Source: a virus
Reading direction: 5' to 3' (one strand)
Length of the DNA: 12,940 bases
Virus record (IMG/VR): IMGVR_UViG_3300045988_172454
Positions 192-12,940 of this stretch are shown here, in pieces. Every line of letters begins with the position of its first letter. Positions within the stretch are counted from its first letter, which is position 1. The translations under genes and the position numbers were made by a program. Under the pieces are notes generated by a model. The model was given only the letters and a program-made list of their open reading frames with translations, had not been told where the DNA came from and made no database searches.

Positions 192-434
192 ATGAAGAAC
201 ATTAACAACACAATTGATAATATACTGATTGCACTTGGTGCAACTTGGAGTTTAGCTAATATTCAAACACTACTTGGCATTATAGTGTTAGTTTTCCAAA
301 TTGTATGGCTTACATTTAAACTAATTGTCAAAATCATAAATAAGATTAAAACAAAGGGTAATTTAGATGAGTTAGACAAAGAAGTTGATAAAATAACTGA
401 TAAGATTAATTCAATAGGTGATGAAGATGAGTAA
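192..434 (+). CDS. Small membrane protein, holin-like (80 aa). It has two predicted hydrophobic helices followed by a Lys-rich and then acidic coiled-coil tail
   Basis: The ORF has a strong RBS (GAGGTGA). The hydrophobic segments ILIALGATWSLANI and LLGIIVLVFQIVWLTFKLIV are followed by KIINKIKTKGN and a C-terminus ending ...DEDE. This topology and size match class II holins, but no lysin partner is evident. Confidence 0.45.
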   Translation: MKNINNTIDNILIALGATWSLANIQTLLGIIVLVFQIVWLTFKLIVKIINKIKTKGNLDELDKEVDKITDKINSIGDEDE

Positions 435-1428
435 CACAATAAATAACCGCAAGGAATGGATTTTAGCAAGTTGTAAAAACGTACTTCAAGATAAAGATTA
501 TTTAATTAAACATATGATACTTCATATGCTTAACAAAACAACAAAAATGTTTAAATATACAGGTTTACCTGACACAATCAATGTAAAAGATTTAGAAACT
601 CAGTTACAAGTAAACGGTTTTGCTATTTGGAAAGAAGTTGAAGGAAAATTATACACATTTACTGGTGGATTAGGCGGTGAACCTAATGTATACTATCTAC
701 CAACTAAAGCTATAATATCAAATCCTGCTCTAAGATATACTGCTTCACTTGAGATAGATAAAGAATGTGTTGTTATGCTTAATGATTATTACTATGACGG
801 ATTAATGCCAATTAATAATAAATACGCTTCATTAATAACTGAAGGTGAATTATCGCTTAAATACGCTATGATAAATGCTAGAATTCCATCATTAGTACAA
901 GCTGATAATGATAATACCGCTGAGTCCGCTAAATCATTTTTTAATAAAATTGAGCGTGGTGAAGATTATGGTATTATTACTTCTAAAGAGTTTTTTGATG
1001 GTATAAAAACACACGATTTTCTAAAGATACAAAATATAAAAGATTTAATAGAAGTAGTACAATATTTAAAAGGTAGTTGGTACAATGAAATTGGTATACG
1101 TTCAACATTCAATATGAAGCGTGAAGCAATCAATAGTAGTGAAAGTTCATTAAATGATGATATATTAAGACCTTTTGTTGATGTTATGTTAGAATGTAGA
1201 AAAAATGCTTTAGAGAAGATTAATAAAATGTTTAATACAAATATAACAGTTGAACTTGATAGTGTATGGCTTTCAACACAAGTTGACGAAGATTTATCAC
1301 AAGATTTAAAAGTGGCTCAAGTAGAACAACTTGAGAAAACTAATGATAAAAAAGAAGAAAATAAAGGTGGTGAAGACAATGAAACTGTGGGAAACCCTGA
1401 CGGACGAAGAGAAAATACAACTGATTAA
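427..1428 (+). CDS. Head-tail connector / portal protein (phi29 gp10-like upper collar). The ORF track starts it at GTG 418; I prefer ATG 427 because of the upstream AGGTGA RBS
   Basis: The segment FKYTGLPDTINVKDLETQLQVNGFAIWKE...GGLGGEPNVY matches, from memory, phi29 gp10 [28 protein letters not shown]...GALSGQRDVY. The size of about 333 aa is also similar to gp10 (309 aa). Confidence 0.7.
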   Translation: MSNTINNRKEWILASCKNVLQDKDYLIKHMILHMLNKTTKMFKYTGLPDTINVKDLETQLQVNGFAIWKEVEGKLYTFTGGLGGEPNVYYLPTKAIISNPALRYTASLEIDKECVVMLNDYYYDGLMPINNKYASLITEGELSLKYAMINARIPSLVQADNDNTAESAKSFFNKIERGEDYGIITSKEFFDGIKTHDFLKIQNIKDLIEVVQYLKGSWYNEIGIRSTFNMKREAINSSESSLNDDILRPFVDVMLECRKNALEKINKMFNTNITVELDSVWLSTQVDEDLSQDLKVAQVEQLEKTNDKKEENKGGEDNETVGNPDGRRENTTD

Positions 1429-2215
1429 TCGTGAAATTGTTGGTATTTTTTCAACAATGATTTTATCAGGTGATGATTATTATTCACTTGCTAATGATTT
1501 ATGTTTAGGGTATTATATGGAGCGGAGCGGACAAAAAACTATATCAAAAACATATCAATTAATGTTAGATACTATTAAAGACAATAAAATTACTAATGAA
1601 ACCGCGGAAAGTTTATTAGGAAAATTAATACGTGGTAAGTATTCTTATAAATGGACTAAGATATACAATGCGTTAATGAATAACGATTATAAAGTATTGG
1701 ATGAATATGCTTCAACTACTATTACTAAAGGTAATAATGTTGATGAAACAAATTATGCTTCTCAAGTTGGAAAAACAGGAGCAAATAAAGATGAAACAAT
1801 TTATAATACTACTAATGAAGATGATGGAACATCAGGTAGTAGTGAAGTTACAACTCGTAATACTGAAAATAATAATGATGTATATGGGTTCAACAGTGTA
1901 TCACCTGTAGCAGCAAACACTAATAATGAAGTAATTACTGAAAAAGTAGAGGGTGAAGCCTCTAAAAATACAACACATAATACATCTACTAAAACAGGAA
2001 CTGACACTAAAAACTTCACTATTGATGAAAATCAATCTAAAACAGGAAAAGATACTATTAATAAAACTATAGATGAAAATGAAAATGTAAATGGACGTTA
2101 CAAAACAGGTGCTGAATTAATTAATAAAGAACTTGATATGCGTGAAAAACAAATACTTTTCAACATATTCTATAGAGATATTGATAGTGTTGTAACTTTA
2201 CAAATATATGAATAA
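1379..2215 (+). CDS. Structural protein, possibly a lower collar / tail tube protein (phi29 gp11-like by position and size). The 294-aa ORF-track version (1331) is an in-frame upstream extension lacking an RBS
   Basis: ATG 1379 is preceded by AGGTGG (1365-1370). The gene follows the portal gene as gp11 follows gp10 in phi29. The protein is 278 aa with a helical N-terminus, a Thr/Asn/Glu-rich low-complexity middle and a conserved-looking C-terminus. Confidence 0.4.
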   Translation: MKLWETLTDEEKIQLINREIVGIFSTMILSGDDYYSLANDLCLGYYMERSGQKTISKTYQLMLDTIKDNKITNETAESLLGKLIRGKYSYKWTKIYNALMNNDYKVLDEYASTTITKGNNVDETNYASQVGKTGANKDETIYNTTNEDDGTSGSSEVTTRNTENNNDVYGFNSVSPVAANTNNEVITEKVEGEASKNTTHNTSTKTGTDTKNFTIDENQSKTGKDTINKTIDENENVNGRYKTGAELINKELDMREKQILFNIFYRDIDSVVTLQIYE

Positions 2216-2230
2216 AGGAGTGATTAAAAA

Positions 2231-2509
2231 ATGCAAAAAGGCGGTTATCAAATAATCGATTTAGAAAATTGGAAGTTTACAACAACTAAAGGTGCTCCTG
2301 TTGCTAAAACACAAAAAGGAGTATATGCCCTTATAAAAGGGACTAGAAAAGTAATAATGTTAAGTGGAATTAATCTTGATGGAAAAGAGTTACACGACAT
2401 TTTCATTGAAGTAACACTAAACACTACTACTTATGAAGCAACAATTTATAGTAATTATAAATTAACAATTACTAATACAGACGTTGTTACAATTGAGGCT
2501 TTAAAATAG
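2231..2509 (+). CDS. Hypothetical small beta-rich protein (92 aa) immediately upstream of the capsid gene. It may be a capsid-associated or decoration protein. It does not look like a helical scaffolding protein
   Basis: The ORF has an AAAGGAG RBS and a Thr/Val/Ile-rich composition. It occupies the position of phi29 gene 7 but with a different character. Confidence 0.45.
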   Translation: MQKGGYQIIDLENWKFTTTKGAPVAKTQKGVYALIKGTRKVIMLSGINLDGKELHDIFIEVTLNTTTYEATIYSNYKLTITNTDVVTIEALK

Positions 2510-2525
2510 AAAGGAGATATAAAAT

Positions 2526-3692
2526 ATGAAAGTAGAACAAGCCTATGAATTTACAAATTATGCAACAAAAGAGGCTATTGGTGAAGTAGTAATTCTTAAA
2601 GAGGATTTATCAAACATAGTTGATGTTGGTGACGCTATTTTTAATGCTAATGCTTATGATAAATACGTTCACGCTTTAGTAAATAGAATTGGTAGAACTA
2701 TATTTGTAAATAGAGTATATCAAGGTAGTGCACCAAGTGTATTAATGGATGGTTGGGAATATGGTTCCGTTTTACAAAAAGTATCAGGTGCATTACCTGA
2801 AGCAAAAGTTAATGAAACGTGGGAATTACAAGACGGACAAAGTTATGACCCACATATCTTCCACGCTCCAAAAGGTATTGTTGTTAAGTTTTATAATGAC
2901 TATGTAACATTTGAAGTTGATATGTCATTTACTGAAGAACAATTAAAGCAAAGCTTTATCAATGCTAATGAGTTAAACGGATTTATAAGTATGCTTTATA
3001 CTCTTGTTGAAAACTCATTAACTGTTAAAATTGATGAATTAATACGTAGAACAATTAACAATATGATTGGTGAAACATTATATGATGATTATGCTTCAGG
3101 TACTGTATTTAATAATAAATCAGGAGCGAAAGCTATTAACTTATTATATTTATATAATCAAACAAAAGCTGAAGCTGACCAATTAACAGCTACAAATTGT
3201 ATCACAAATCCTGATTTTATTCGCTATGCGTCATACATTATCAAATTAACATTTGATAGACTACATACTATGTCAACAATATTTAATATAGGTAATCAAC
3301 CAAGATTTACACCTAAGGACTTATGCCATATTGTACTATTAACTGATTTTGCAAGTGGTGCGGATGTATTTTTACAAAGTGACACTTTCCATAATGAATT
3401 ATCAGCTTTACCAAAGAGTGAGATTGTTTCATATTGGCAAGGTAGTGGAACTGACTTTGGATTTAACAGTGTATCTAAGATAGATATTAAAACTGCTGAT
3501 GGAAATGACGTAGCAACAACGGGTATATTAGGAGTAATGTTTGATAGAAACGCATTAGGTGTATGTAACACACAAAGAAAAGTTACTTCACAATGGACTC
3601 CTAATGCTGAGTTCTTCACAAACTTTTATAAATACAAAGCAGGGTTCTTTAATGATTTAAATGAAAACTTTGTAGTGTTCTTTGTTGCATAA
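2526..3692 (+). CDS. Major capsid protein (phi29 gp8-like)
   Basis: It has the strong RBS AGGAGA with an 8-nt spacer. The segment DKYVHALVNRIGRTIFVNRV resembles phi29 gp8 NDFITSLVDRIGLVVIRQ (recalled from memory). At 388 aa it is the longest non-tail structural ORF and is followed by a hairpin plus T-run. Confidence 0.65.
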   Translation: MKVEQAYEFTNYATKEAIGEVVILKEDLSNIVDVGDAIFNANAYDKYVHALVNRIGRTIFVNRVYQGSAPSVLMDGWEYGSVLQKVSGALPEAKVNETWELQDGQSYDPHIFHAPKGIVVKFYNDYVTFEVDMSFTEEQLKQSFINANELNGFISMLYTLVENSLTVKIDELIRRTINNMIGETLYDDYASGTVFNNKSGAKAINLLYLYNQTKAEADQLTATNCITNPDFIRYASYIIKLTFDRLHTMSTIFNIGNQPRFTPKDLCHIVLLTDFASGADVFLQSDTFHNELSALPKSEIVSYWQGSGTDFGFNSVSKIDIKTADGNDVATTGILGVMFDRNALGVCNTQRKVTSQWTPNAEFFTNFYKYKAGFFNDLNENFVVFFVA

Positions 3693-3700
3693 TTAATTAA

Positions 3701-3748
3701 GTGATAGAAGTAAAGAGTATAAGATTTACTCTATACTCTATCACTTTT
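3701..3748 (+). terminator. Imperfect hairpin plus T-run downstream of the capsid gene, a candidate partial terminator or attenuator. Arms GTGATAG/CTATCAC and AGAGTA/TACTCT, then TTTT
   Basis: The outer 7-bp stem and inner 6-bp stem are followed by TTTTAATATT. It lies between the capsid stop (3692) and the next start (3772). Confidence 0.4.
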
Positions 3749-3771
3749 AATATTAGAAAGGATGTGAAAAA

Positions 3772-5556
3772 ATGGCAAAAGTATTAGATATACAAGAAAT
3801 AACATTACCATCAGCGTTAAATAGTACACAAACAAGTGGATATTATTACAATGGTTATTATTATATTAATACTTATAATAAGATATATAAATATGATTAT
3901 ATTAATAATGTTTTAACTATTTTATATAACAAATCAACTGAGAGTTATTATTGTTTAGGAATAAATGACAATATATATAGTTTTTATTATAATCAAACAG
4001 CAAGACAAGGTGATAATTATGTTTTTAACATTATTTTATATGTTTATAACATCACTAATAATACATATACTGAGCTAGGTAGTTCAAATTGTCCTTTTGT
4101 TGTTTATGGACACGAAATTGTATCTTTAGGTATCAATATGTTTTCATTTGATGGTAAAAAAATATATATATGTAATAGTATGTTTGAATATAAATCAACA
4201 TCAAATGGTTATACAAATTTTTATAGTAGATTAATTTATCATTGTTATAATATTGACACAAATAGTTTTACATATAATACTAAGGGTGGAACGGATAATG
4301 GATATATACCTTGTATAACACAACCTATTATATATAATAATAAATATTATTACAATATGACAAAATATAATGAAATACTAAATAATACATATAATATCTA
4401 TAGAAAAAATTTAGGATTCATAGATGTATTCATTGATAGTTGGGGTGATGAGTTCCTACAAATGAAAAACCTTTCCTCTTTAGATTATGATATAAGATAT
4501 AATGCCATTATGAAAAAAGAAGATGGTATTTATTATTTAATTGGTGGATATCTTAATGATAGTACAGTTAATAGAAAACTATATGAACTTAATTTAACTT
4601 CTCAAACTTTAACTGAGACAACATACGTATTACCTGAAGATTTTAGAGCTGTTAATGCGTGGTTTGTACAAGGTGAAAATGAAGGCTTTATATTTACTAA
4701 AACTAAAGCATATAAGTTTAGTTTTATTGAATATAATAATATTTATAACATTAGTAATAGTAAAGGTGATTTTATATATCAAACATTAACTGAACAATCA
4801 CCAATTAGTAAATTAAAGTTTACACAATCAGGTGATAATATTGGATATAATTTTACAACAATAACAGGTGATGTAACAGGAATATATACTCCACAAATAC
4901 CTAGTGGTTATAAATTAATAGGTTATTCACCTTCACCTAATTCAACAAAAGCAATAATACCTTTAGATACTGAAATTACCTATAATGTATTAGAAGATTT
5001 TACTTTCTATGAAGTGTATGGTAAATATCGTCCTATATATACTCCTTTTAGTATAAAACTTTATCAAAATAAAGCTGAAGCAAATAGAGTAGATAAAACA
5101 AATTATATCACTCTTGTTAAAGAGGTGTTAGGTGTTTTACGTGAGTCAACATCAATAATTGATTTTGCAGTTGTTCTAGAATTAGATACTTTCCCTAATT
5201 TTAACTATGTTTATATAGAAATATTTAATAGATATTACTTTGTAAGTGATATAGTATCCGTTAATAAAAATATATGGGAAGTGTCATTAAGTTGTGATGT
5301 ACTAATGAGTTATAAAGACGCTATTAATGCTTGTACCGGTTTTGTTGATAGAAACGAAAATACTTATAATTTATTAATAGTAGATGATAAATTACCTTTA
5401 AAACAAGGACAAACAATAACTACTGCTTTTGTGAATAATACATTATTTGATGATATTCAAGGAACATATGTTTTACAAGGATTACTTGTTACTCAAGGTG
5501 ATATTGTTACACCTCAAACACAAACAACTGAAACTACAACGAAGGAGGATAAATAA
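3772..5556 (+). CDS. Tail fibre / receptor-binding protein candidate (594 aa). The N-terminal half is extremely Tyr/Asn-rich with Kelch- or beta-propeller-like repeats
   Basis: Repeated Y/N/G motifs include GYYYNGYYYI, IYSFYYNQ, GKKIYICNS and EDGIYYLIGGYLND. Its size is comparable to the phi29 gp9 / appendage class. It is translationally coupled to the next gene by a TAATG overlap. Confidence 0.45.
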   Translation: MAKVLDIQEITLPSALNSTQTSGYYYNGYYYINTYNKIYKYDYINNVLTILYNKSTESYYCLGINDNIYSFYYNQTARQGDNYVFNIILYVYNITNNTYTELGSSNCPFVVYGHEIVSLGINMFSFDGKKIYICNSMFEYKSTSNGYTNFYSRLIYHCYNIDTNSFTYNTKGGTDNGYIPCITQPIIYNNKYYYNMTKYNEILNNTYNIYRKNLGFIDVFIDSWGDEFLQMKNLSSLDYDIRYNAIMKKEDGIYYLIGGYLNDSTVNRKLYELNLTSQTLTETTYVLPEDFRAVNAWFVQGENEGFIFTKTKAYKFSFIEYNNIYNISNSKGDFIYQTLTEQSPISKLKFTQSGDNIGYNFTTITGDVTGIYTPQIPSGYKLIGYSPSPNSTKAIIPLDTEITYNVLEDFTFYEVYGKYRPIYTPFSIKLYQNKAEANRVDKTNYITLVKEVLGVLRESTSIIDFAVVLELDTFPNFNYVYIEIFNRYYFVSDIVSVNKNIWEVSLSCDVLMSYKDAINACTGFVDRNENTYNLLIVDDKLPLKQGQTITTAFVNNTLFDDIQGTYVLQGLLVTQGDIVTPQTQTTETTTKEDK

Positions 5557-6710
5557 TGGCTACTGATAATAAATGGATTAGAGCACAAACTACAGGTTAC
5601 GATACCTCAATGAATGGTAAAGTAGTAATGACTCCAACACAGGTTAATACTTTGTGGAAATGGGTAATGAAAAGTCCTATATCTTCAGCTATATTTGGTG
5701 ATTATACAAAGTGGTGTAGTTCACTAATGTTTTTTCCATTTAATATATCACCTGATGTAACAGCAAATTATAAACTCTCAGTAATGGGTGTACAATCGGA
5801 TGAAATTACTTGTAAAGGATTAATTCCATCCAATGCAATATTTGGATACACTTTAGGTGAATACTTATATCCTTTACCTACTAAATATTTGGATTATGAA
5901 CCTTATACAAAACTTGAAGTGTATCTACCATTTTATGGACTAATTAATTTAAAAATTAGTGATGTTGCCGGTAAATACATTCAATTTAGATTGTTTGTTG
6001 ATTTTAATAGTGGAGTAGCACAATATGTAGTGGGAGTAAATGAAGTAAGTGTATCAAGTCCTAATGCTCCATATTGGATTAATACTGATGATACTAATAC
6101 TAGAATAATTGGTACTTATGTTTTTAATTTAGGATATAACATTCCGATAACTTCAACAGGAATGGCTGAAACAATACGTAATATTTCACTTGCTGTAATA
6201 AAAGGAACAGGTAATATTGCAAGTAGCTATATTGTAGATAAACTAACACCTAATACTACTACAAGTGCAAGTACTACCACTTTTACAAGAAGAAATCCAA
6301 AAACCGGTAGACAAGTGACTATGGGTACTAAACAAGAAGTTGAAACACGTGAAAGATATGATTATGGCACTAACCAAAGAGTAGGTACAGCATTTAATAC
6401 CGCAACAAGTGTATTAGAGGGTTTAAGTTTATCACCTGTTGTTGATAAAGCTAATAATAATATTATCAACAGTTCAACGTGTATGTCCGTTGTCATTATT
6501 AAAAAACAAGTAGTACCAACTATTGATATTACTAGTAGCGAGTATCGCAAACTTTATGGATTACCTTTAGGTGAGTTTAAATTGCTTTCTACAATCACTG
6601 GATACACTGAAATATCTTCAATACATTTAGAAGGTGAAGGATTTAATGAGGCTACTCATAAAGAACTAGCAATGATTAGTGAATTACTTAATGGGGGTAT
6701 TATTTTATAA
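5556..6710 (+). CDS. Putative tail protein (384 aa; tail knob or distal tail component)
   Basis: It has the RBS AAGGAGGA with a 6-nt spacer. It sits between the fibre-like gene and the packaging ATPase with start/stop overlaps on both sides. It is beta-rich and no catalytic motif is recognised. Confidence 0.35.
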   Translation: MATDNKWIRAQTTGYDTSMNGKVVMTPTQVNTLWKWVMKSPISSAIFGDYTKWCSSLMFFPFNISPDVTANYKLSVMGVQSDEITCKGLIPSNAIFGYTLGEYLYPLPTKYLDYEPYTKLEVYLPFYGLINLKISDVAGKYIQFRLFVDFNSGVAQYVVGVNEVSVSSPNAPYWINTDDTNTRIIGTYVFNLGYNIPITSTGMAETIRNISLAVIKGTGNIASSYIVDKLTPNTTTSASTTTFTRRNPKTGRQVTMGTKQEVETRERYDYGTNQRVGTAFNTATSVLEGLSLSPVVDKANNNIINSSTCMSVVIIKKQVVPTIDITSSEYRKLYGLPLGEFKLLSTITGYTEISSIHLEGEGFNEATHKELAMISELLNGGIIL

Positions 6711-7804
6711 TGAAAGAAAAATATTACACACTTAATAACATTCTTACTTATAATGCTGATTATAATATAATATATGGTGAAAGAAGTAATGGTAAAACAA
6801 CAGCAGTTTTGAGATACGCTTTAGAAGATTATATAAAAAGTAATTATATCAATCAACTTGCGATTGTTCGTAGATGGGAAGAAGATTTTAAAGGAAAAAA
6901 CGGAAGTCAAATGTTTGAAAGTATTGTTAATTTGGGATGGGTTGAAGAACTTACTAAAGGTAAATATAACGCTATCTATTACTATTCTCAAAGGTGGTAT
7001 CTAGCATTTTATAATGATGGTGAAAAAACTTTACAAGAAGAAAAACCTTTTGCCTTAGGTTTCTCAATTACTAGTGAAGAACATTATAAATCAACATCAT
7101 ATCCTAATATTAAGAATATATTATTTGATGAGTTTATCACAAGACAATATTATCTACCTGAAGAGTTCGTCAAGTTTCAAAATCTTTTATCAACTCTTAT
7201 TAGGTTAAAGAAAGATGTTAAAATATTTATGTGTGGTAATACGATAAATAAATACTGTCCATACTTTGCGGAAATGGGTTTATCAGGTGTTAAAAAACAA
7301 GTTAAAGGAACGATTGATTTATACACATATGGTGAAAGTACATTAAAAGTTGCTGTTGAATATAGTGACTTTCCATCTAAGAAAAAAGCAAGTAATAAAT
7401 ACTTTGCTTTCAATAATCCTAAATTACAAATGATAACTCACGGTGGATGGGAAATTGATATTTACCCTCACTTACCGCATAAATACCTTCCAAAAGATAT
7501 ATTATATCAATTCTTTATTCTTTTTGATAATGAAAAATTACACGGTAATATAATAAGTGTAGATGATACAATTTTTCTATATATTCATAGGAAAACAACA
7601 CCTATTAAAGAGAATAGTGAATACCTTATCTATCAACAACAACCTGATTACAGGCGAAATTATAGAACCAATATTTTAAAACCTTATAGTAAAGTTGATA
7701 AATATATCACAAATCTAATAGTTAATAAAAAAATCTTTTATCAAGATAATGAAGTTGGTGAGATTATGAATAACTATTTGAAATGGTGTATTTCAGGTAA
7801 ATAA
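6710..7804 (+). CDS. DNA packaging (encapsidation) ATPase, phi29 gp16-like
   Basis: Walker A GERSNGKT corresponds to phi29 GARGIGKS. Walker B ILFDEF corresponds to phi29 IVFDEF. Its 364 aa compare with about 332 for gp16, and it is the last gene of the + unit as in phi29. Confidence 0.85.
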   Translation: MKEKYYTLNNILTYNADYNIIYGERSNGKTTAVLRYALEDYIKSNYINQLAIVRRWEEDFKGKNGSQMFESIVNLGWVEELTKGKYNAIYYYSQRWYLAFYNDGEKTLQEEKPFALGFSITSEEHYKSTSYPNIKNILFDEFITRQYYLPEEFVKFQNLLSTLIRLKKDVKIFMCGNTINKYCPYFAEMGLSGVKKQVKGTIDLYTYGESTLKVAVEYSDFPSKKKASNKYFAFNNPKLQMITHGGWEIDIYPHLPHKYLPKDILYQFFILFDNEKLHGNIISVDDTIFLYIHRKTTPIKENSEYLIYQQQPDYRRNYRTNILKPYSKVDKYITNLIVNKKIFYQDNEVGEIMNNYLKWCISGK

Positions 7805-7830
7805 AAAAGATAGTAGAAATACTATCTTTT
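7805..7830. terminator. Bidirectional intrinsic terminator between the convergent ATPase and polymerase genes: AAAAGATAGTA-GAAA-TACTATCTTTT
   Basis: A perfect 9-11 bp stem (7805-7815 pairs with 7820-7830) carries a GAAA tetraloop. A T-run follows on the + strand (TTTTATTTAT) and a U-run on the - strand (complement of AAAAAA 7803-7808). It overlaps the last codons of the polymerase gene. Confidence 0.7.
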
Positions 7831-9957
7831 ATTTATATAACTTGATTTAACACCCATAATAAGTTTTATAAACTCATTATCTAATCCTAAAACATATCCG
7901 GTAGGCTCCATATGTACTCCTGATAACTCAAGATACTTTCCTTTGTTGCCAAGATAATCTATTACTTCACCTTGCATTTCATCATCAATATATGTATGGC
8001 AAAGTTTACCGCTACCTTGTTTTTTCACACCATTATCATTATAAACAGGTGGAAACTCTAATTCATTTTCAAATGCTTTAAATATCTTATCATTAGTTTT
8101 AAATCTACTTCTAAGATAATTAGCACCATTACTTTTAGCAACTCCTGCTATAGTGATATTAATTTCACCGTTTTTTTCAATCATATACCTCTTAGCTCCT
8201 AAAGTTTTAAATCTATCATACATACCTTCATAGTCCCATACTCCTAAAGGCTTTTCAATTCCTTTGATAGTCTTTGGTGAGGCTTTTTTAACATCTATGT
8301 TATAATGTGATAAACATTTATGTATCTTTTCAGTAATACGATTATTATATTTTTCAATGTAATCTTTATGTTTATCAATGTTTAAAACCTTGATACTATC
8401 AGTATCGCTGTATATGTAATCATTTTTAAACTCTAATATACCGGTAAATAAATTACGTCTAGCGTATGCTGTTATCCATACTCCCCAAGGATAATAAAGA
8501 AATCTAGAAAAACTATCATTATATTTTTTTAAATAATCTTCAATTTGATAATTTTCTAATTTTTCTTCATACCATTCATCTTGTAGGGACAAATATTCAT
8601 TAATATCTCTACAGGGGTCGGTTACACACATACCATAGCAAGAATTAATCATACCTTTAGAAACTTGATATTCAGCCTCTTTTCCTTCAACATTCTTTAA
8701 TGTTGTTTTGTCAAAATATAATTTAAGTATCATTTCAATAAAACTTTTAGGTAAATACCCTTTGTAGAATTTTTTAAAATGACTAATCTTCATAGAGTCC
8801 CAAGTATACATTTGTGATACTATAAAGAAATCTTGTTCCGTAAAACTTATTTTTAACAAACTAGCTTCTACAACTCTACCATTATTTAATATATAGTGTT
8901 CTATTTTACTACATCTTGAAAATGATATATAATTTTCAAACTCGCTTGTTGCCCGGATATTTTCAAACTCAATATCAAACATACAACAATAAGTTTTTAA
9001 TAAAGTGATGAACTGTTTGCCACTTTCAATCTTAACAGGTATTGGTTTACTCATCGGAAACTTTTCACTAAGCATTACTGCTGGATACGAAGATGAAAAA
9101 TCGAAACTATGTACCTTTTCAACAACTTTTCCAACATAATTGACATTAGCGTGTGTAAATCCACCTGTATATGTTCTTTTAAGTTGTTTATAGTCATCAA
9201 TATCAATTTTTAATAATCTCATTAAGTGGCTATATTCATATCGTTCTTCACCTTTTAAACACACTGTTCTACAAGCATTACGGACATATCCTGTTTTAGT
9301 TAGGGGTAATCTAGTAATATCACCTAATCTTTCTATCTCTTCTTGAATAAATGCCATTACTACTAATCCATCATTCAGGATATACCCCCATTCAGTATCC
9401 GTAAGAGGTGTTTGTGAATGTCTAATTAGTTCATAATCTAAGTCTCCAACTTTTTTATTTACTTTATATTTAGTAAGGTTTTCACCTAATTTTTCTAGTG
9501 AATACCCCGAAAGTAAATAAGAACAGCGAAACTCTATACCTATTTCAGCTAGTGCATAAAGAGGTTTCCTTGTATCAGTTGCAAAAACTTTGCACCAATC
9601 AAACATTTTTCTAAACCATTGGAACTCATACGCTAAATTATGCACATAAATTATCATCTTATTAATTATAGATAATTCGTAATATTCACATACTCTTTGT
9701 AGAACTTTGAACCATTCATCCCACGTTCTACCTCGTATGCATTTTCCGTTTATTCCAAAAACCCAAGCATACATAGTACATTGTTTTTGGTTTTCTTCAT
9801 TATAAAAGGAACTAGCTTCAATATCAAATACTGAAGCTACATTCAATACATTACAATTTCTTGTTACTATCCAATCAAAAGGCTCTAATAGTTCTTCAAT
9901 ACTATTAAAGAAGTTTTTTGAGTTCATCGGTGAGTAAAATTGAAAGTTCGTCTTCAT
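7822..9957 (-). CDS. Protein-primed family-B DNA polymerase (phi29 gp2-like, 711 aa). I start it at ATG 9957 (RBS AAGGTGA) rather than the GTG at 9966
   Basis: Exonuclease motifs are Exo I FDIEAS, Exo II YVHNLAYEF and Exo III YILNDG. The YxGG motif is YTGGF, motif A is DFSSSYP, motif B is KGMINSCYG and motif C is YSDTDSI. A KxY motif is present as KRY. Confidence 0.9.
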   Translation of the reverse strand: MKTNFQFYSPMNSKNFFNSIEELLEPFDWIVTRNCNVLNVASVFDIEASSFYNEENQKQCTMYAWVFGINGKCIRGRTWDEWFKVLQRVCEYYELSIINKMIIYVHNLAYEFQWFRKMFDWCKVFATDTRKPLYALAEIGIEFRCSYLLSGYSLEKLGENLTKYKVNKKVGDLDYELIRHSQTPLTDTEWGYILNDGLVVMAFIQEEIERLGDITRLPLTKTGYVRNACRTVCLKGEERYEYSHLMRLLKIDIDDYKQLKRTYTGGFTHANVNYVGKVVEKVHSFDFSSSYPAVMLSEKFPMSKPIPVKIESGKQFITLLKTYCCMFDIEFENIRATSEFENYISFSRCSKIEHYILNNGRVVEASLLKISFTEQDFFIVSQMYTWDSMKISHFKKFYKGYLPKSFIEMILKLYFDKTTLKNVEGKEAEYQVSKGMINSCYGMCVTDPCRDINEYLSLQDEWYEEKLENYQIEDYLKKYNDSFSRFLYYPWGVWITAYARRNLFTGILEFKNDYIYSDTDSIKVLNIDKHKDYIEKYNNRITEKIHKCLSHYNIDVKKASPKTIKGIEKPLGVWDYEGMYDRFKTLGAKRYMIEKNGEINITIAGVAKSNGANYLRSRFKTNDKIFKAFENELEFPPVYNDNGVKKQGSGKLCHTYIDDEMQGEVIDYLGNKGKYLELSGVHMEPTGYVLGLDNEFIKLIMGVKSSYINKR

Positions 9958-10456
9958 CGTCTTCACCTTCCAATGCTTCTAAAGTATCATCATACGCATT
10001 AATAATATCTTCAATAATTGCTTCTTCAGTTTTTCCTTGATACATCATATCAAGTATAGTTCCCCATACTTCATATTTATATTTCTCAAAAGTACCTGAT
10101 GTTATCTCATACTGTTTACCATATATTTCCCAAAACTTTTTTTTCGCTTCAGGCGATAATGTTTTCAAGTTATTTTTTATAGGTTCTAATTTTCTTTGTA
10201 CCTCTTTAGCGCCTCTAACAGTACTTGATTTTAATTTTTCTATGTATGATAAATCTCTATAAAGATTTTCTAACTCTTTTCTAGAAAGTTCACTCAGTCT
10301 TTTAGGAATATTTAAACTTCTATATTTTTCTACTGCATATTGAGGTGTTGTTTCTTTATCATATTTCTCAATACGCTCAATTCGTCTTGATACATTTTTA
10401 ATAAGACGCCTAGTCTTTTTTCTAAGCGTCTTATCGTCTCTAGCAAAACTATTCAT
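9905..10456 (-). CDS. Terminal protein candidate (183 aa), immediately upstream of the polymerase and overlapping it by 53 nt
   Basis: Its position is that of phi29 gene 3, next to the polymerase gene. The N-terminus is strongly basic (KTLRKKTRRLIKNVSRRIERIEK). The C-terminal tail is acidic (EALEGEDDEDELS) and could mimic DNA in the polymerase template channel. No alignment could be run. Confidence 0.5.
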   Translation of the reverse strand: MNSFARDDKTLRKKTRRLIKNVSRRIERIEKYDKETTPQYAVEKYRSLNIPKRLSELSRKELENLYRDLSYIEKLKSSTVRGAKEVQRKLEPIKNNLKTLSPEAKKKFWEIYGKQYEITSGTFEKYKYEVWGTILDMMYQGKTEEAIIEDIINAYDDTLEALEGEDDEDELSILLTDELKKLL

Positions 10457-10465
10457 ATTTTACCT

Positions 10466-10846
10466 CTAAAATGGTAAATCTTTTTCATTAAATATGTTTT
10501 CTTTATCATCACCAAATACTGACTCAAGTTTTGCTTCTCTAATTTGTTTCAATTCTTCTTCAGTATATTTAGAAAGTTCAACAACTTTATTAATCCAAAT
10601 TGTAGGATTACCTTGCTTTTTCACACCATTTTTATCAGTGTAGAAATTTCCTTTTTCAATAGATACGTCATCAATATTAATTGTCATATGATACATACCT
10701 TTTTCTTTAGGTGTAGTTAAACATTCTCTAGTAAACTTCACTTTAAACCATTTAGTTTTCACTAGTGTAGTAAAAGCTACAAATGCTTTTCCATCGTTCA
10801 TTTTAATTTCCTTTGCATAAATTGTTAATTTTTGTGTTTTTTCCAT
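10466..10846 (-). CDS. Hypothetical early protein (126 aa), possibly an ssDNA-binding protein
   Basis: It has the RBS AAGGAG. It is Lys-rich and beta-rich (KWFKVKFTRE, TIWINKVVEL) with an acidic C-terminus. Its position upstream of the terminal-protein and polymerase genes matches that of SSB or DBP genes in phi29-like early operons. The assignment is weak. Confidence 0.3.
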   Translation of the reverse strand: MEKTQKLTIYAKEIKMNDGKAFVAFTTLVKTKWFKVKFTRECLTTPKEKGMYHMTINIDDVSIEKGNFYTDKNGVKKQGNPTIWINKVVELSKYTEEELKQIREAKLESVFGDDKENIFNEKDLPF

Positions 10847-10915
10847 AATTTTAATCTCCTTTATTTAATATTTTTTGTTTTTCTTAAACACATTTCAAAT
10901 TGATATAATCTTTTT

Positions 10916-11122
10916 TTAATAACGTCCACGATTTTCACAAATCTCAATCACTGCTTTAATAAACTCAAGCTCAGCTTCATAAAGCTCTAAATCCTTTTCT
11001 TGAATGCTTGATAAAATATCATAGATTTTAACATCTTTCAGCTGATTAATTTTCTCATAGAGTTCTATTCTATGTTTTTCTAAGAAGTTCTTTAATGTCG
11101 GCTTTCCGTCTTTATATGCCAT
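10916..11122 (-). CDS. Hypothetical early protein (68 aa, helical with a coiled-coil-like character)
   Basis: It has the RBS GGAGGTGA and its start overlaps the upstream stop (TAATG at 11120-11124). Confidence 0.45.
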   Translation of the reverse strand: MAYKDGKPTLKNFLEKHRIELYEKINQLKDVKIYDILSSIQEKDLELYEAELEFIKAVIEICENRGRY

Positions 11123-11346
11123 TATATCACCTCCTTCCTCGTTAAGAATATACCATTAGGTTTAAAGATATATATTATATCTTCTTCTTTAATGCTTTCA
11201 AATGATTTAATATTATTAGGGTCAAGGTCAATCAATATTACTCTATCACCTACTTTTAAATATGACTTTCCATCTTTAGTTCTAAATGTCATACCTGATT
11301 TTATAGCTTTTTTATCTTTAATAATTTCATATCTTGTATCTTCCAT
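11122..11346 (-). CDS. Hypothetical early protein (74 aa), possibly an AbrB/MazE-like DNA-binding regulator
   Basis: It has the RBS AAGGAG with a 6-nt spacer. The segment KSYLKVGDRVILIDLD resembles the swapped-hairpin pattern of AbrB/MazE (a weak call). It is the first gene downstream of the 360-bp regulatory region. Confidence 0.4.
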   Translation of the reverse strand: MEDTRYEIIKDKKAIKSGMTFRTKDGKSYLKVGDRVILIDLDPNNIKSFESIKEEDIIYIFKPNGIFLTRKEVI

Positions 11347-11492
11347 ATATACTCCTTATAATTTAATTTAATTCGGATTTTTATTTTAGGGTCTCACTTT
11401 TTTCAAAGTTTTCAACCAATTTCTTAATATTTTTATTCTAAAACTTTTTCAATTTTCTCAAACACGAAACTTTTTTGAAAAGTTTTTGTAGG

Positions 11493-11535
11493 GCTGAAGA
11501 GGGTTTTGGTGAGGGTCGATTTTTTTGCCCTTCAG
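11493..11535 (-). ncRNA. Candidate structured RNA element (GC-rich stem-loop) in an otherwise AT-rich intergenic region. The strand assignment is tentative
   Basis: The window GGGCTGAAGAGGG...GCCCTTCAGG is about 48% GC against a genome average of about 27%. The stem is 8 bp on the minus-strand RNA, because the G.U wobble there is an A-C mismatch on the plus-strand RNA, and the loop is a 25-nt A-rich sequence. It is followed on the minus strand by an AU hairpin (11467-11485). Confidence 0.3.
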
Positions 11536-11606
11536 GTTTTGGCTTGAATATTTGAACATATGAACACTTCATCATATGAACATATTTTCATATGTCTTTT
11601 CTTTGG

Positions 11607-11672
11607 TTTATTTATGTATTTACATATTTGTGTATATACATATTTATGTATTTATATAAATACATATTTATG
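11607..11672. repeat. Internal partial copy of the terminal-repeat units (8-bp and 16-bp units in right-end orientation, plus one inverted unit that creates the 16-bp palindrome GTATTTATATAAATAC)
   Basis: The sequence GTATTTAC.. GTATATACATATTTAT GTATTTAT ATAAATAC matches the right-end ITR units GTATTTAT and GTATATACATATTTAT. Confidence 0.7.
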
Positions 11673-11705
11673 ATGTCCCTTTCTTATTTCCTTAAGTTTT
11701 AGAAA

Positions 11706-11966
11706 TTAAGCGATTCTCTCAACTTGCTTTTGAGAGAAGAAGAATGCTTTTGATTTGAAGAATGAGCCATCGTTCACTTCTTCAGAATCTACTTCAGTTT
11801 TAACTTTTGTTTTCTTTGGAAACCAAATCATACACGCCATTACTGATTTCTCGCCCTTCTTGACTTGATAGCCAAGACGCTTCCAGTCTTTATAAGTTTT
11901 AAGTATTAAATCCTCATCTAGTCCTAATTCTTTTTTTGCTGTTTCGATAATTTGATAATTAGTCAT
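11706..11966 (-). CDS. Hypothetical early protein (86 aa). The ORF-track 99-aa version is an upstream extension
   Basis: The RBS AAGGAGGA lies 8 nt upstream of ATG 11966. The start overlaps the upstream stop (ATGA at 11963-11966), suggesting translational coupling. The protein is basic, Lys-rich and acidic at its C-terminus, so it is a candidate small DNA-binding protein. Confidence 0.5.
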   Translation of the reverse strand: MTNYQIIETAKKELGLDEDLILKTYKDWKRLGYQVKKGEKSVMACMIWFPKKTKVKTEVDSEEVNDGSFFKSKAFFFSQKQVERIA

Positions 11967-12160
11967 TTTTTTTGTCCTCCTTTTAAATAATAATTTTTGA
12001 CACATAATAATTCCATCACGTCAGCATTTTCATTATTTTTTATAAATTCATCATATGTAATAGTTTTAACCGCATTAATGAGTATTAAGTTACCATCCAA
12101 CCCCTCAACGTAGTAATTACCATAGTCATCAGTATAGATTTTTATTGTGCTTTTTTTCAT
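11963..12160 (-). CDS. Hypothetical early protein (65 aa), small and acidic
   Basis: It has the RBS AGGAGTGA with a 7-nt spacer and is coupled to the downstream gene. Confidence 0.5.
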   Translation of the reverse strand: MKKSTIKIYTDDYGNYYVEGLDGNLILINAVKTITYDEFIKNNENADVMELLCVKNYYLKGGQKK

Positions 12161-12177
12161 ATTGTATCACTCCTTTT

Positions 12178-12549
12178 TTAATAATAATAATAATCAACAT
12201 CTACTACGTCATCATAATCAAAATTATTACATTGAATTAAATCTTCATTTACATTATATAGTTCTATTGATAAAGTTGTAACAATATACCCGCCATAAGA
12301 TTTATTAAACTCTTTTGCATTACTCTTTACTACTTCTAAACATTCAAATAAATAATTTGTTGCGGTCAAATGTGTAATATATGGTAAATCATTAATATTA
12401 TTATTATTAATTTTTTCTCTAAAAATAACCCATTCATCACCACATCCGCTATTTGTAAAACTTCCTTGCTTACATACTATATTAACGTATCCTCCTTTCT
12501 TGATTGTTTCTCCAATTACTTTTTGTTGTCTGTCATTAAAATACATCAT
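12178..12549 (-). CDS. Hypothetical early protein (123 aa, Cys-containing), the first gene of the right-end early unit. The 137-aa ORF-track version reads through ITR-type repeats and is an artefactual extension
   Basis: The RBS AAGGAGGA (complement of 12558-12563) lies 8 nt upstream of the ATGATG at 12549. The protein contains CKQGSFTNSGCGDEW. Confidence 0.5.
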   Translation of the reverse strand: MMYFNDRQQKVIGETIKKGGYVNIVCKQGSFTNSGCGDEWVIFREKINNNNINDLPYITHLTATNYLFECLEVVKSNAKEFNKSYGGYIVTTLSIELYNVNEDLIQCNNFDYDDVVDVDYYYY

Positions 12550-12567
12550 TTTATAATCCTCCTTGAT

Positions 12568-12604
12568 GTTTATGTATTTATGTATATACATATTTATTTA
12601 TATG
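12568..12604. repeat. Second internal partial copy of the terminal-repeat units (GTATTTAT followed by GTATATACATATTTAT), in the 5' leader of the first early gene
   Basis: Positions 12574-12597 match the right-terminal units exactly. Confidence 0.7.
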
Positions 12605-12605
12605 T

Positions 12606-12629
12606 GTATCTGAAATCTCTATCAGATAC
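12606..12629. promoter_or_regulatory. Perfect 8-bp inverted repeat GTATCTGA-N8-TCAGATAC at the predicted start of the early transcript. It is a candidate operator or 5'-leader hairpin
   Basis: The inverted repeat is seen directly in the sequence. It lies immediately downstream of the candidate -10 (12636-12641, minus strand). Confidence 0.4.
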
Positions 12630-12635
12630 GCTAAT

Positions 12636-12665
12636 ATTATAAACCTTAACATATTTTGAAATCAA
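12636..12665 (-). promoter_or_regulatory. Candidate right-end early promoter on the minus strand: -35 TTGATT, 18-nt spacer, -10 TATAAT
   Basis: The -35 is the complement of AATCAA at 12660-12665 and the -10 is the complement of ATTATA at 12636-12641. The orientation and position are right for driving the leftward early unit. Confidence 0.35.
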
Positions 12666-12828
12666 GAAAAATCGTAATGAAAACGGTTTCAGTCTTTATT
12701 TTGAGTTGTAATCGATTTTTATTTTTTACCTTTATAGTTTTATAGGGTATATATGAAAATTGATTATAACGCAAAATAGACGTCAAAAATCACATTTGTA
12801 TTTTTGGTTGTCTTTGTATGTTATCGTG

Positions 12829-12940
12829 TTTTATGTATATGTATATATGTATTTATGTATTTATGTATATACATATTTATGTATTTATGTATTTATGTAT
12901 ATATTTAATTATGTATTTATGTATTTATGGTTATGCATTT
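12829..12940. repeat. Right inverted terminal repeat (tandem 8-bp and 16-bp units plus the 12-bp unique terminus GGTTATGCATTT)
   Basis: Its reverse complement, AAATGCATAACC ATAAATAC ATAAATAC ATAATTAAATATATAC ATAAATAC ATAAATAC ATAAATATGTATATAC ATAAATAC ATAAATAC.., matches the left end. Confidence 0.8.

Follow-up and report, generated by a model that had tools for sequence, protein, structure and literature searches.

A probable regulatory intergenic region with a copy of the terminal repeats, and no recognizable packaging RNA, in a phi29-like gut phage genome

We analyzed a non-coding region at positions 11347-11705 of a 12,940-bp stretch of viral DNA (hereafter, the window, meaning the whole stretch) and conclude that it is most likely a regulatory intergenic region and not a packaging RNA (pRNA). 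Our main result is negative. We give about an even chance to a more specific reading, in which the region would serve as an internal early promoter and leader with terminal-repeat iterons upstream. Read along the - strand, its parts are, in order, an array of 8-bp repeats that copies the phage's own termini; a further 8-bp array, degenerate and found in some strains only (the CATATG cassette); a fast-evolving C-rich spacer in which a weak hairpin is possible; a strongly conserved AT-rich core of ~130 bp, in which T/A-tract (UP-like) elements accompany a degenerate candidate promoter of sigma-A/sigma-70 type; and a leader rich in A/U that contains an (AATTA)n repeat and a strong Shine-Dalgarno site. 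On this reading, host RNA polymerase would start or re-start early transcription here for the replication genes, and the terminal-type repeats would bind the same putative phage protein that recognizes the genome ends. Expression of the replication genes would thereby be tied to end occupancy, as with phi29 p6.

Genome organization and relatives

We identified the window as the complete linear genome of a phi29-like, protein-primed phage. Its ends are a pair of inverted terminal repeats (ITRs; 1-108 versus 12833-12940, 89% complementary) built of 8-bp units of type TACATAAA. The late genes, on the + strand at 192-7804, include a phi29-type upper collar connector (portal), a major head protein and a gp16-type packaging ATPase. 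On the - strand lie the genes for a protein-primed DNA polymerase of family B (7822-9966), for a probable terminal protein and for an SSB-like protein, along with several small early genes. The replication module, all on this strand, comprises a 74-aa protein, a 68-aa protein, the SSB-like protein, the terminal protein and the DNA polymerase. No tRNA or tmRNA was found. The features at and near the genome ends are:

1-125, no strand assigned: left inverted terminal repeat, with 8-bp units as in the right repeat and the late promoter next to it
146-174: late promoter TTGACA-17-TAATAT, beside the left terminal repeat
12555-12612, no strand assigned: second internal copy of ITR-type 8-bp units, located in the 5' leader of the first early gene, with the candidate right-end promoter on its other side
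12665 to 12636, - strand: candidate right-end promoter TTGATT-18-TATAAT
12830-12940, no strand assigned: right inverted terminal repeat (inverted repeat I1, 1-108 versus 12833-12940)

The source habitat is gut metagenomes; close variants were recovered from the gut of humans and pigs, and the samples that carry the phage include ERR321565 (human) and ERR1135189 (pig). The 90%-identity cluster of the polymerase has 178 members, one of them encoded on a contig from a human gut metagenome, and a large protein collection holds 6699 polymerase homologues at E<=1e-50. The family is a very large group of gut phages with genomes of roughly 12-13 kb. By polymerase (43-47% identity), the closest cultured relatives are Astrithrvirus-type phages (Salmonella phages astrithr and Astrid, Enterobacter phage Entb_47 and Acinetobacter phage Phanie), which are small phi29-like phages with genomes of 11-12 kb. 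A megablast search of the whole genome against GenBank phages gave no match, and no nucleotide similarity to the Astrithrvirus-type phages was found. An 18-mer DNA scan of IMG/VR returned mostly chance matches in large unrelated contigs.

In uncultured relatives with polymerases 42-47% identical all genes are co-directional, whereas the window genome has convergent operons. The ends of the ATPase gene (7804) and the polymerase gene (7822) converge 17 nt apart (7805-7821), which leaves no room for a terminator hairpin between the late and early operons. In other lineages of the family (L006, L008, L011, L014 and L138), the first 60-130 nt of the termini consist of short tandem units whose sequences differ, such as ATTTTTGACACA in L006 and TTTACAAAATA in L014. 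TTGACA-like -35 boxes are found within some of these terminal units.

Position and conservation of the region

The region lies between a 74-aa ORF (11122-11346) and a 99-aa ArdC-N-like ORF (11706-12005), both on the - strand. The original prediction, made from the sequence alone, described it as the only long ORF-free stretch between genes. Its place between these two ORFs is correct; however, it holds a 45-aa ORF, and a second non-coding stretch of ~280 nt is present at the right terminus (~12550-12830). The 45-aa ORF (11438-11575, - strand) was rejected as a gene, as its start lies inside an optional cassette and a 1-nt indel shifts its frame in all other variants. Most of the motifs listed in the prediction are present at or near the places it gave them. 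Only the 8-bp repeats, the spacing of the CATATG cores and the TTGAAAA-type motifs rise above chance; the phasing of the T-tracts and the GC stem-loop do not. The features of the region are:

11344-11373, - strand: end of the leader, with the AATTAAATTAAATTA repeat (11373 to 11359), an AAGGAG ribosome-binding site (RBS) and the ATG of the 74-aa gene
11347-11705, - strand (early-gene sense): entire non-coding stretch that separates the accessory early genes from the replication module, taken from the ORF map and kept as a unit in variants
11424-11452, - strand: candidate promoter B, TTGAAA-17-TATTAA, a -10 hexamer without the final, invariant T
11435-11461, - strand: candidate promoter A, TTGAGA (11461-11456), 15 nt, TAGAAT (11440-11435), in MAFFT register with relatives' promoters
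11467-11485, no strand assigned: AT palindrome AAACTTTT-TTG-AAAAGTTT, a T-tract/A-tract element read directly from the sequence
11494-11535, - strand: GC-rich element (C-rich on the - strand) with a weak hairpin, 5' arm 11535 to 11528 (CTGAAGGG), 3' arm 11503 to 11494 (CCCTCTTCAG), loop of ~24 nt
11546-11600, no strand assigned: optional cassette, a degenerate array of 8-bp GAACATAT units with three CATATG cores
11600-11685, no strand assigned: internal array of the phage's own terminal 8-bp units (TACATAAA / TATGTATT), oriented as in the right ITR

We compared 12 or more distinct variants of the region, all from genomes with polymerases at least 90% identical. In every one of them the region heads the replication module. 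The genes upstream are exchanged among these variants, with at least three unrelated sets, and the first downstream gene is sometimes swapped too; in five variants (L030, L047, L048, L050 and L051) a 124-128-aa gene sits directly behind the same leader and RBS. Homology between variants breaks at the upstream edge of the ITR-type array and at the RBS. Within these limits, four parts behave differently: a conserved AT-rich core, a constant ITR-type array, an optional CATATG cassette and a fast-evolving GC element.

The accessory early genes are mosaic across genomes whose polymerases are at least 90% identical, as seen when 11706-12591 of the window is set against L002, L029, L030 and L047; the gene sets among these genomes are 137/65/99, 137/78, 114/65/111 and 112/66/41/70 aa, and an optional gene of 123-128 aa may come after the region. 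At the 3' end of the ArdC-N-like gene, 3 nt ahead of the stop codon, lies a 9-bp inverted repeat, TTCTCTCAA-N7-TTGAGAGAA (11712-11736). It is terminator-like on the - strand but has no proper U-run, and its 5' arm is missing in L002.

The GC-rich element and the packaging RNA question

GC content reaches 0.40-0.47 over 11460-11549, against ~0.2-0.3 in most neighboring windows, with an excess of G on the + strand. The GC element is the fastest-evolving part of the region, being 80-89% identical to close variants where the adjacent core is 95-98% identical. At its start, AAGCCAAAACC is flanked by UUCA/UGAA (11533-11543). The imperfect stem-loop predicted for this island does have its arms, at 11494-11503 and 11528-11535, but the fold is not above chance (-7.2 kcal/mol for the stem-loop alone, z -1.3).

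Folding of 11440-11600 on both strands, proposed as a check of the prediction, proved weak (z -1.4 on +, -2.3 on -). The whole 359 nt reach z ~ -5 equally on both strands, as expected of DNA palindromes and repeats and not of a strand-specific RNA. For the 99-nt core at 11452-11550, z is -1.8 on the - strand and -0.4 on the + strand; the homologous RNA of L047 has z -0.5, and the GC hairpin is not predicted in it at all. Across 11 variants, RNAalifold draws a three-way junction on the - strand (~11457-11545), with a folding term of -13.9 and a covariation term of -0.1 kcal/mol. In the GC hairpin 96.8% of the - strand cells are paired, but 223 of 500 shuffles match that value, and a strict count of compensatory changes found no pair altered on both sides. 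The conserved covariation that a structured RNA had been predicted to show was not significant among the 11 variants. All five transitions in the hairpin keep G-U pairing on the - strand and would break the hairpin on the + strand, a weak hint of - strand pairing (roughly p = 0.03-0.06 by our own count).

The original prediction also held that the region could encode a small RNA, perhaps the pRNA of the packaging motor. The phi29 pRNA has a stable fold of 120-174 nt with a three-way junction, and the requirement of the motor for it is seen as RNase-sensitive packaging. A genome with a phi29-type portal and a gp16-type ATPase makes a pRNA-like or other structured small RNA conceivable here, as does the junction drawn by RNAalifold. 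However, the Rfam pRNA model matched nothing at gathering score, and nothing in 11200-11800 even at E<=10. No Rfam family of any kind, pRNA included, matched at gathering score, at E<=10 in the region or at E<=5 genome-wide. Sixteen related genomes likewise gave no gathering-score match. The weak folding, the lack of significant covariation and the low conservation of the GC element all count against such an RNA, and the candidate promoters sit downstream of that element. The likeness to phi29 pRNA (RF00044) is one of phage type only (portal and ATPase): there is no covariance-model match, stable fold or covariation, the region is not adjacent to either end of the genome, and the GC element is not preceded by a promoter of its own. 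We therefore reject a pRNA-like or other structured small RNA for the packaging motor as very improbable here. To date, only Bacillus relatives of phi29 are known to have a pRNA (PMC11476376; PMC5066667), so its absence here needs no explanation and fits the view that it is confined to that group.

A separate stretch near the right end, 12640-12775, folds at -33.2 kcal/mol on the + strand, towards the genome end (z -5.45), and at -17.3 kcal/mol on the - strand (z -1.5). In 7 close variants this stretch is nearly unchanged; two TATAAT boxes lie on its - strand, and no Rfam family matches it. As a candidate structured RNA it ranks above 11347-11705.

The AT-rich core, candidate promoters and leader

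The AT-rich core (11360-11489, ~130 bp) is 95-98% identical between variants and the neighboring genes are 89-99% identical, so that the conservation of the core is on par with that of coding DNA. T-tracts are present over 11398-11487 as had been predicted (11398-11403, 11409-12, 11420-22, 11430-34, 11445-49, 11453-56, 11471-76 and 11483-87), but the phasing claimed for them is within the chance range: at 10-11.5 bp it ranks only 106-242 of 1284 windows, and autocorrelation at lag 10-11 is at background. We therefore rejected intrinsic curvature from phased T-tracts. A more specific motif, TTGAAAANKTT, has three matches in the genome, all within 11405-11485, against 0.63 expected in the whole genome. 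The predicted 8-bp AT palindrome with a 3-nt loop is present at 11467-11485; its arms are invariant in 11 variants, with slippage confined to the central A-run.

Alignment with relatives places candidate promoters in this core. In MAFFT alignments, the palindrome falls on TTTTCAAAAAA, an element that L135 and L138 carry directly ahead of the -35 box of their perfect TTGACA-17-TG(n)TATAAT promoters. Candidate promoter A aligns with the TTGACA-17-TG(n)TATAAT promoters of L135, L138 and L014. The L014 promoter (polymerase 63% identical) is a perfect TTGACA-17-TGATATAAT, and the intergenic region around it runs from a hairpin where the upstream gene ends, through units resembling its own terminus and the promoter, to a leader of ~150 nt. 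As in the window, a small gene and a conserved 64-aa gene follow the leader in L014.

The window's own promoter hexamers are degenerate, and no pair is near a good consensus. Against the 16-18 nt of a sigma-70/sigma-A-type promoter, candidate A has a spacer of 15 nt in most variants; L029 has 16 nt and L030 has 17. Candidate B holds a 17-nt spacing in L029 through two opposite 1-nt indels and has 19 nt in L030. A generic promoter scan of 10800-12940 found 19 sites against 18.1+/-4.4 in shuffles, which is no enrichment. Given these degenerate hexamers and the unenriched scan beside the alignment with relatives' promoters, we rate promoter function of the core as likely.

No intrinsic terminator was found on either strand of 10800-12940 (0 sites); the loop of the GC hairpin is ~24 nt, and it is an A-run that follows the hairpin on the - strand. 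At the other end of the core, the AATTAAATTAAATTA repeat of the leader differs in copy number between variants, and repeat and RBS together also precede the 124-128-aa gene in L030, L047, L048, L050 and L051. We considered AATTAAATTA as a genome-wide pre-start motif and rejected it, as exact copies are confined to the 11347-11705 region with no enrichment elsewhere.

Terminal-type repeats inside the genome

The ITR-type units predicted to follow the CATATG cores are confirmed at ~11600-11685. Local alignment of this array with either terminus scores 78-80, and shuffles score 30+/-4. Identity within the array at lags of 8, 16 and 24 is 0.55, 0.63 and 0.63. For cassette and array together it is 0.52-0.67 (genome mean 0.31), and values above 0.6 occur only at the two termini and at the array/cassette site. 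The array is thus made of tandem 8-bp units that match the genome's own ITR, as a terminal-repeat iteron array should be, and it is found in every close variant with a variable number of units. The similarity to the terminus is limited to the repeat array and does not cover the promoter part; paralogy of the rest of the region to the right sub-terminal region was rejected (score 25 versus 24+/-3 in shuffles).

The second internal copy, at 12555-12612, is conserved in 7 close variants. Beside it, just downstream of the candidate right-end promoter, lies a perfect 8-bp hairpin, GTATCTGA-N8-TCAGATAC (12608-12631).

The same relation between inside and end holds in other lineages. In the three lineages tested, the internal region matches its own terminal region with z 13 (window), 6.3 (L014) and 17.3 (L138), versus z -0.6 to 2.5 for the termini of other lineages, close relatives excepted. 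Each lineage thus appears to repeat its own terminal units at putative internal early promoters, which points to a protein that may link end recognition with early transcription. The simplest reading is that the 8-bp arrays are protein-binding iterons common to genome ends and early control regions. PHROG and Pfam searches gave no match for the small early proteins, and no DNA-binding protein was identified among the early genes.

The CATATG cassette is a second, less constant array. The predicted CATATG palindrome and two further cores at 11546-11595 are all present; CATATG occurs at 11557, 11573 and 11589, a spacing of exactly 16 bp, with TCATATGA at 11572-11579. Identity at lags 8 and 16 (0.62/0.67) places the cassette in the top 1.6% of 55-bp windows. 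It is present in the window, L029, L030 and L053 and cleanly missing in eight variants (L002, L013, L047, L048, L050, L051, L054 and L055); the suggested CATATG operators thus belong to an optional cassette that most close variants lack. The cassette matches perfect tandem GAACATAT units (x4-5) that stand before the first early gene in the lineage of L015, L016 and L028, with polymerases 50-51% identical.

In these three genomes (L015 405-450, L028 225-275, L016 1-30) the tandem GAACATAT units end in GAACATCTGTTC, a palindrome of the form GAAC-N4-GTTC that resembles the LexA (Cheo) box of Firmicutes. One of the three contigs was binned in a Clostridiales MAG. A LexA box in the cassette of the window was rejected: only direct GAAC repeats are found there (GAACATATGAAC, 11554-11565), and the GAACATCTGTTC palindrome is confined to L015, L016 and L028.

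The array could also be a relic of a former genome end, or of an exchange with the terminus, that remained inside after the genome had gained an accessory module and a further ITR copy. In that case the main use of the conserved sequence would be as homology for module shuffling, and the repeats would have no present regulatory role. Breakpoints between variants at the RBS and at the array's upstream edge would be in keeping with this history. So would the many relatives (polymerase ~50% identical) in which the polymerase lies only ~1.7 kb from the end with no such gap, and the free variation of array copy number and cassette presence. However, the AT-rich core is conserved like coding DNA and both internal arrays are retained in all variants. 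Moreover, in three lineages that differ in their terminal units, the internal units match those of the genome's own ends, which suggests maintenance rather than decay. We consider a fossil terminus or recombination linker unlikely on this evidence.

A hammerhead ribozyme at the same junction in a sister clade

We identified a complete type I hammerhead in four related genomes with polymerases 64-67% identical (L135 466-521, L136 465-520, L137 540-595 and L138 762-818). Its stems are I ACCCU/AGGGU, II GUCUU/AAGAC and III CCGCC/GGCGG, with variable loops, and its core comprises CUGA(U/C)GA, GAAA (within CGAAAC) and a GUC cleavage site. Its Rfam scores are below threshold (RAGATH-1-hammerhead 22.3 bits, Hammerhead_3 19.5 bits), and it is therefore missed by standard annotation. 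The hammerhead directly follows the upstream stop codon, and no promoter lies between it and the next gene. That gene encodes 81-82 aa and precedes the conserved 64-aa gene, whose product is 39-48% identical to the 68-aa protein of the window. The 74-aa protein of the window has no detectable homology to the positionally equivalent 81-86-aa proteins of other clades, so the synteny is anchored on the conserved 64-68-aa gene. The hammerhead thus occupies the same junction as the region studied here, before the small gene that precedes the 64-68-aa gene.

In contrast to this sister clade, neither strand of the window clade holds a hammerhead core of the form CUGANGA...GAAA...NUH closed by three stems. 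A hammerhead descriptor search of both strands matched only L135-L138, and the window has no Rfam ribozyme or hammerhead match (E<=10 in the region, E<=5 in the genome). One hammerhead candidate in the window, with CGAAAC at 11465-11470 and CUGAAGA at 11494-11500 on the + strand, was rejected: the would-be cleavage site is 9 nt from the core, so that no stem I is possible. The CUGAAGA itself is not conserved, reading CUAACGG, CUGACAA and similar in close variants.

Another hairpin recurs ahead of RBSs in the sister clade, GCGG-AAAAGCCAAAAA-CCGC or GUGG-AUAAGGCAAAAA-CCAC (L135 140-185 and 530-570; L138 440-480 and 830-870; L137 610-645). Its stem shows apparent compensatory changes in the sister clade, and AAGCCAAAACC with its UUCA/UGAA flanks at the start of the GC element is a possible counterpart in the window.

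By analogy, the hammerhead suggests that uncoupling of the two early modules may matter, and its occurrence with no intervening promoter motivates a rival reading of the C-rich element as an RNA processing site. Read-through from the right-end promoter, with no internal promoter, could supply the downstream genes, and the C-rich hairpin would then be a cleavage or stability site that separates the accessory-gene mRNA from the replication-gene mRNA. The hammerhead, which apparently does that job at the syntenic junction, favors this arrangement, as do the five hairpin transitions that keep only the - strand pairing and the poor promoter hexamers of the window. Against it, the hairpin is weak (-7 kcal/mol, z -1.3), is not predicted in L047 and pairs no better than the shuffle control; there is no ribozyme core or Rfam ribozyme family on either strand, and no part of the region is less conserved than the GC element. 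We hold such a read-through leader to be doubtful, at the same level as the fossil terminus. A narrower proposal, that the C-rich element and adjacent core (~11457-11545, - strand) form a non-hammerhead processing site, either a new self-cleaving motif or an RNase target, that would uncouple the accessory from the replication mRNA, seems to us improbable.

If the preferred reading of an internal promoter is correct, related lineages would handle the same junction differently, with an internal promoter in the window and L014 and a self-cleaving hammerhead in L135-L138. This contrast offers a natural system for asking what phage hammerheads do.

Comparison with phi29 control regions

The original prediction likened the region to a promoter/operator switch of the phi29 A2b-A2c-A3 type. 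In both phages an AT-rich intergenic control region of several hundred bp lies inside the early region, and the identification as a non-coding control region stands, given the conserved core, the position at the head of the module and the alignment with relatives' promoters. The analogy to A2b-A2c-A3 itself fails because there are no divergent promoters here: both flanks in the window are transcribed leftward (- strand), and the late operon starts at 192 behind its own promoter (146-174).

The phi29 promoters bound by p6 offer another comparison. Protein p6 binds the termini, represses promoter C2 and cooperates at A2b/A2c, and in this way has a dual role in replication at the ends and in early transcription control. 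The phi29 ITRs are of 6 bp and, to our knowledge, phi29 has no sequence-specific iteron arrays. Among the small early proteins of the window, a fast-diverging class, no p4- or p6-like protein was detected by PHROG or Pfam match, and binding here is putative. Both phages nevertheless have protein-primed linear genomes in which short repeated or bendable end sequences recur beside early promoters (candidate promoters in the window). The 8-bp units of the window create a 24-bp super-periodicity, and the binding period of p6 is likewise 24 bp.
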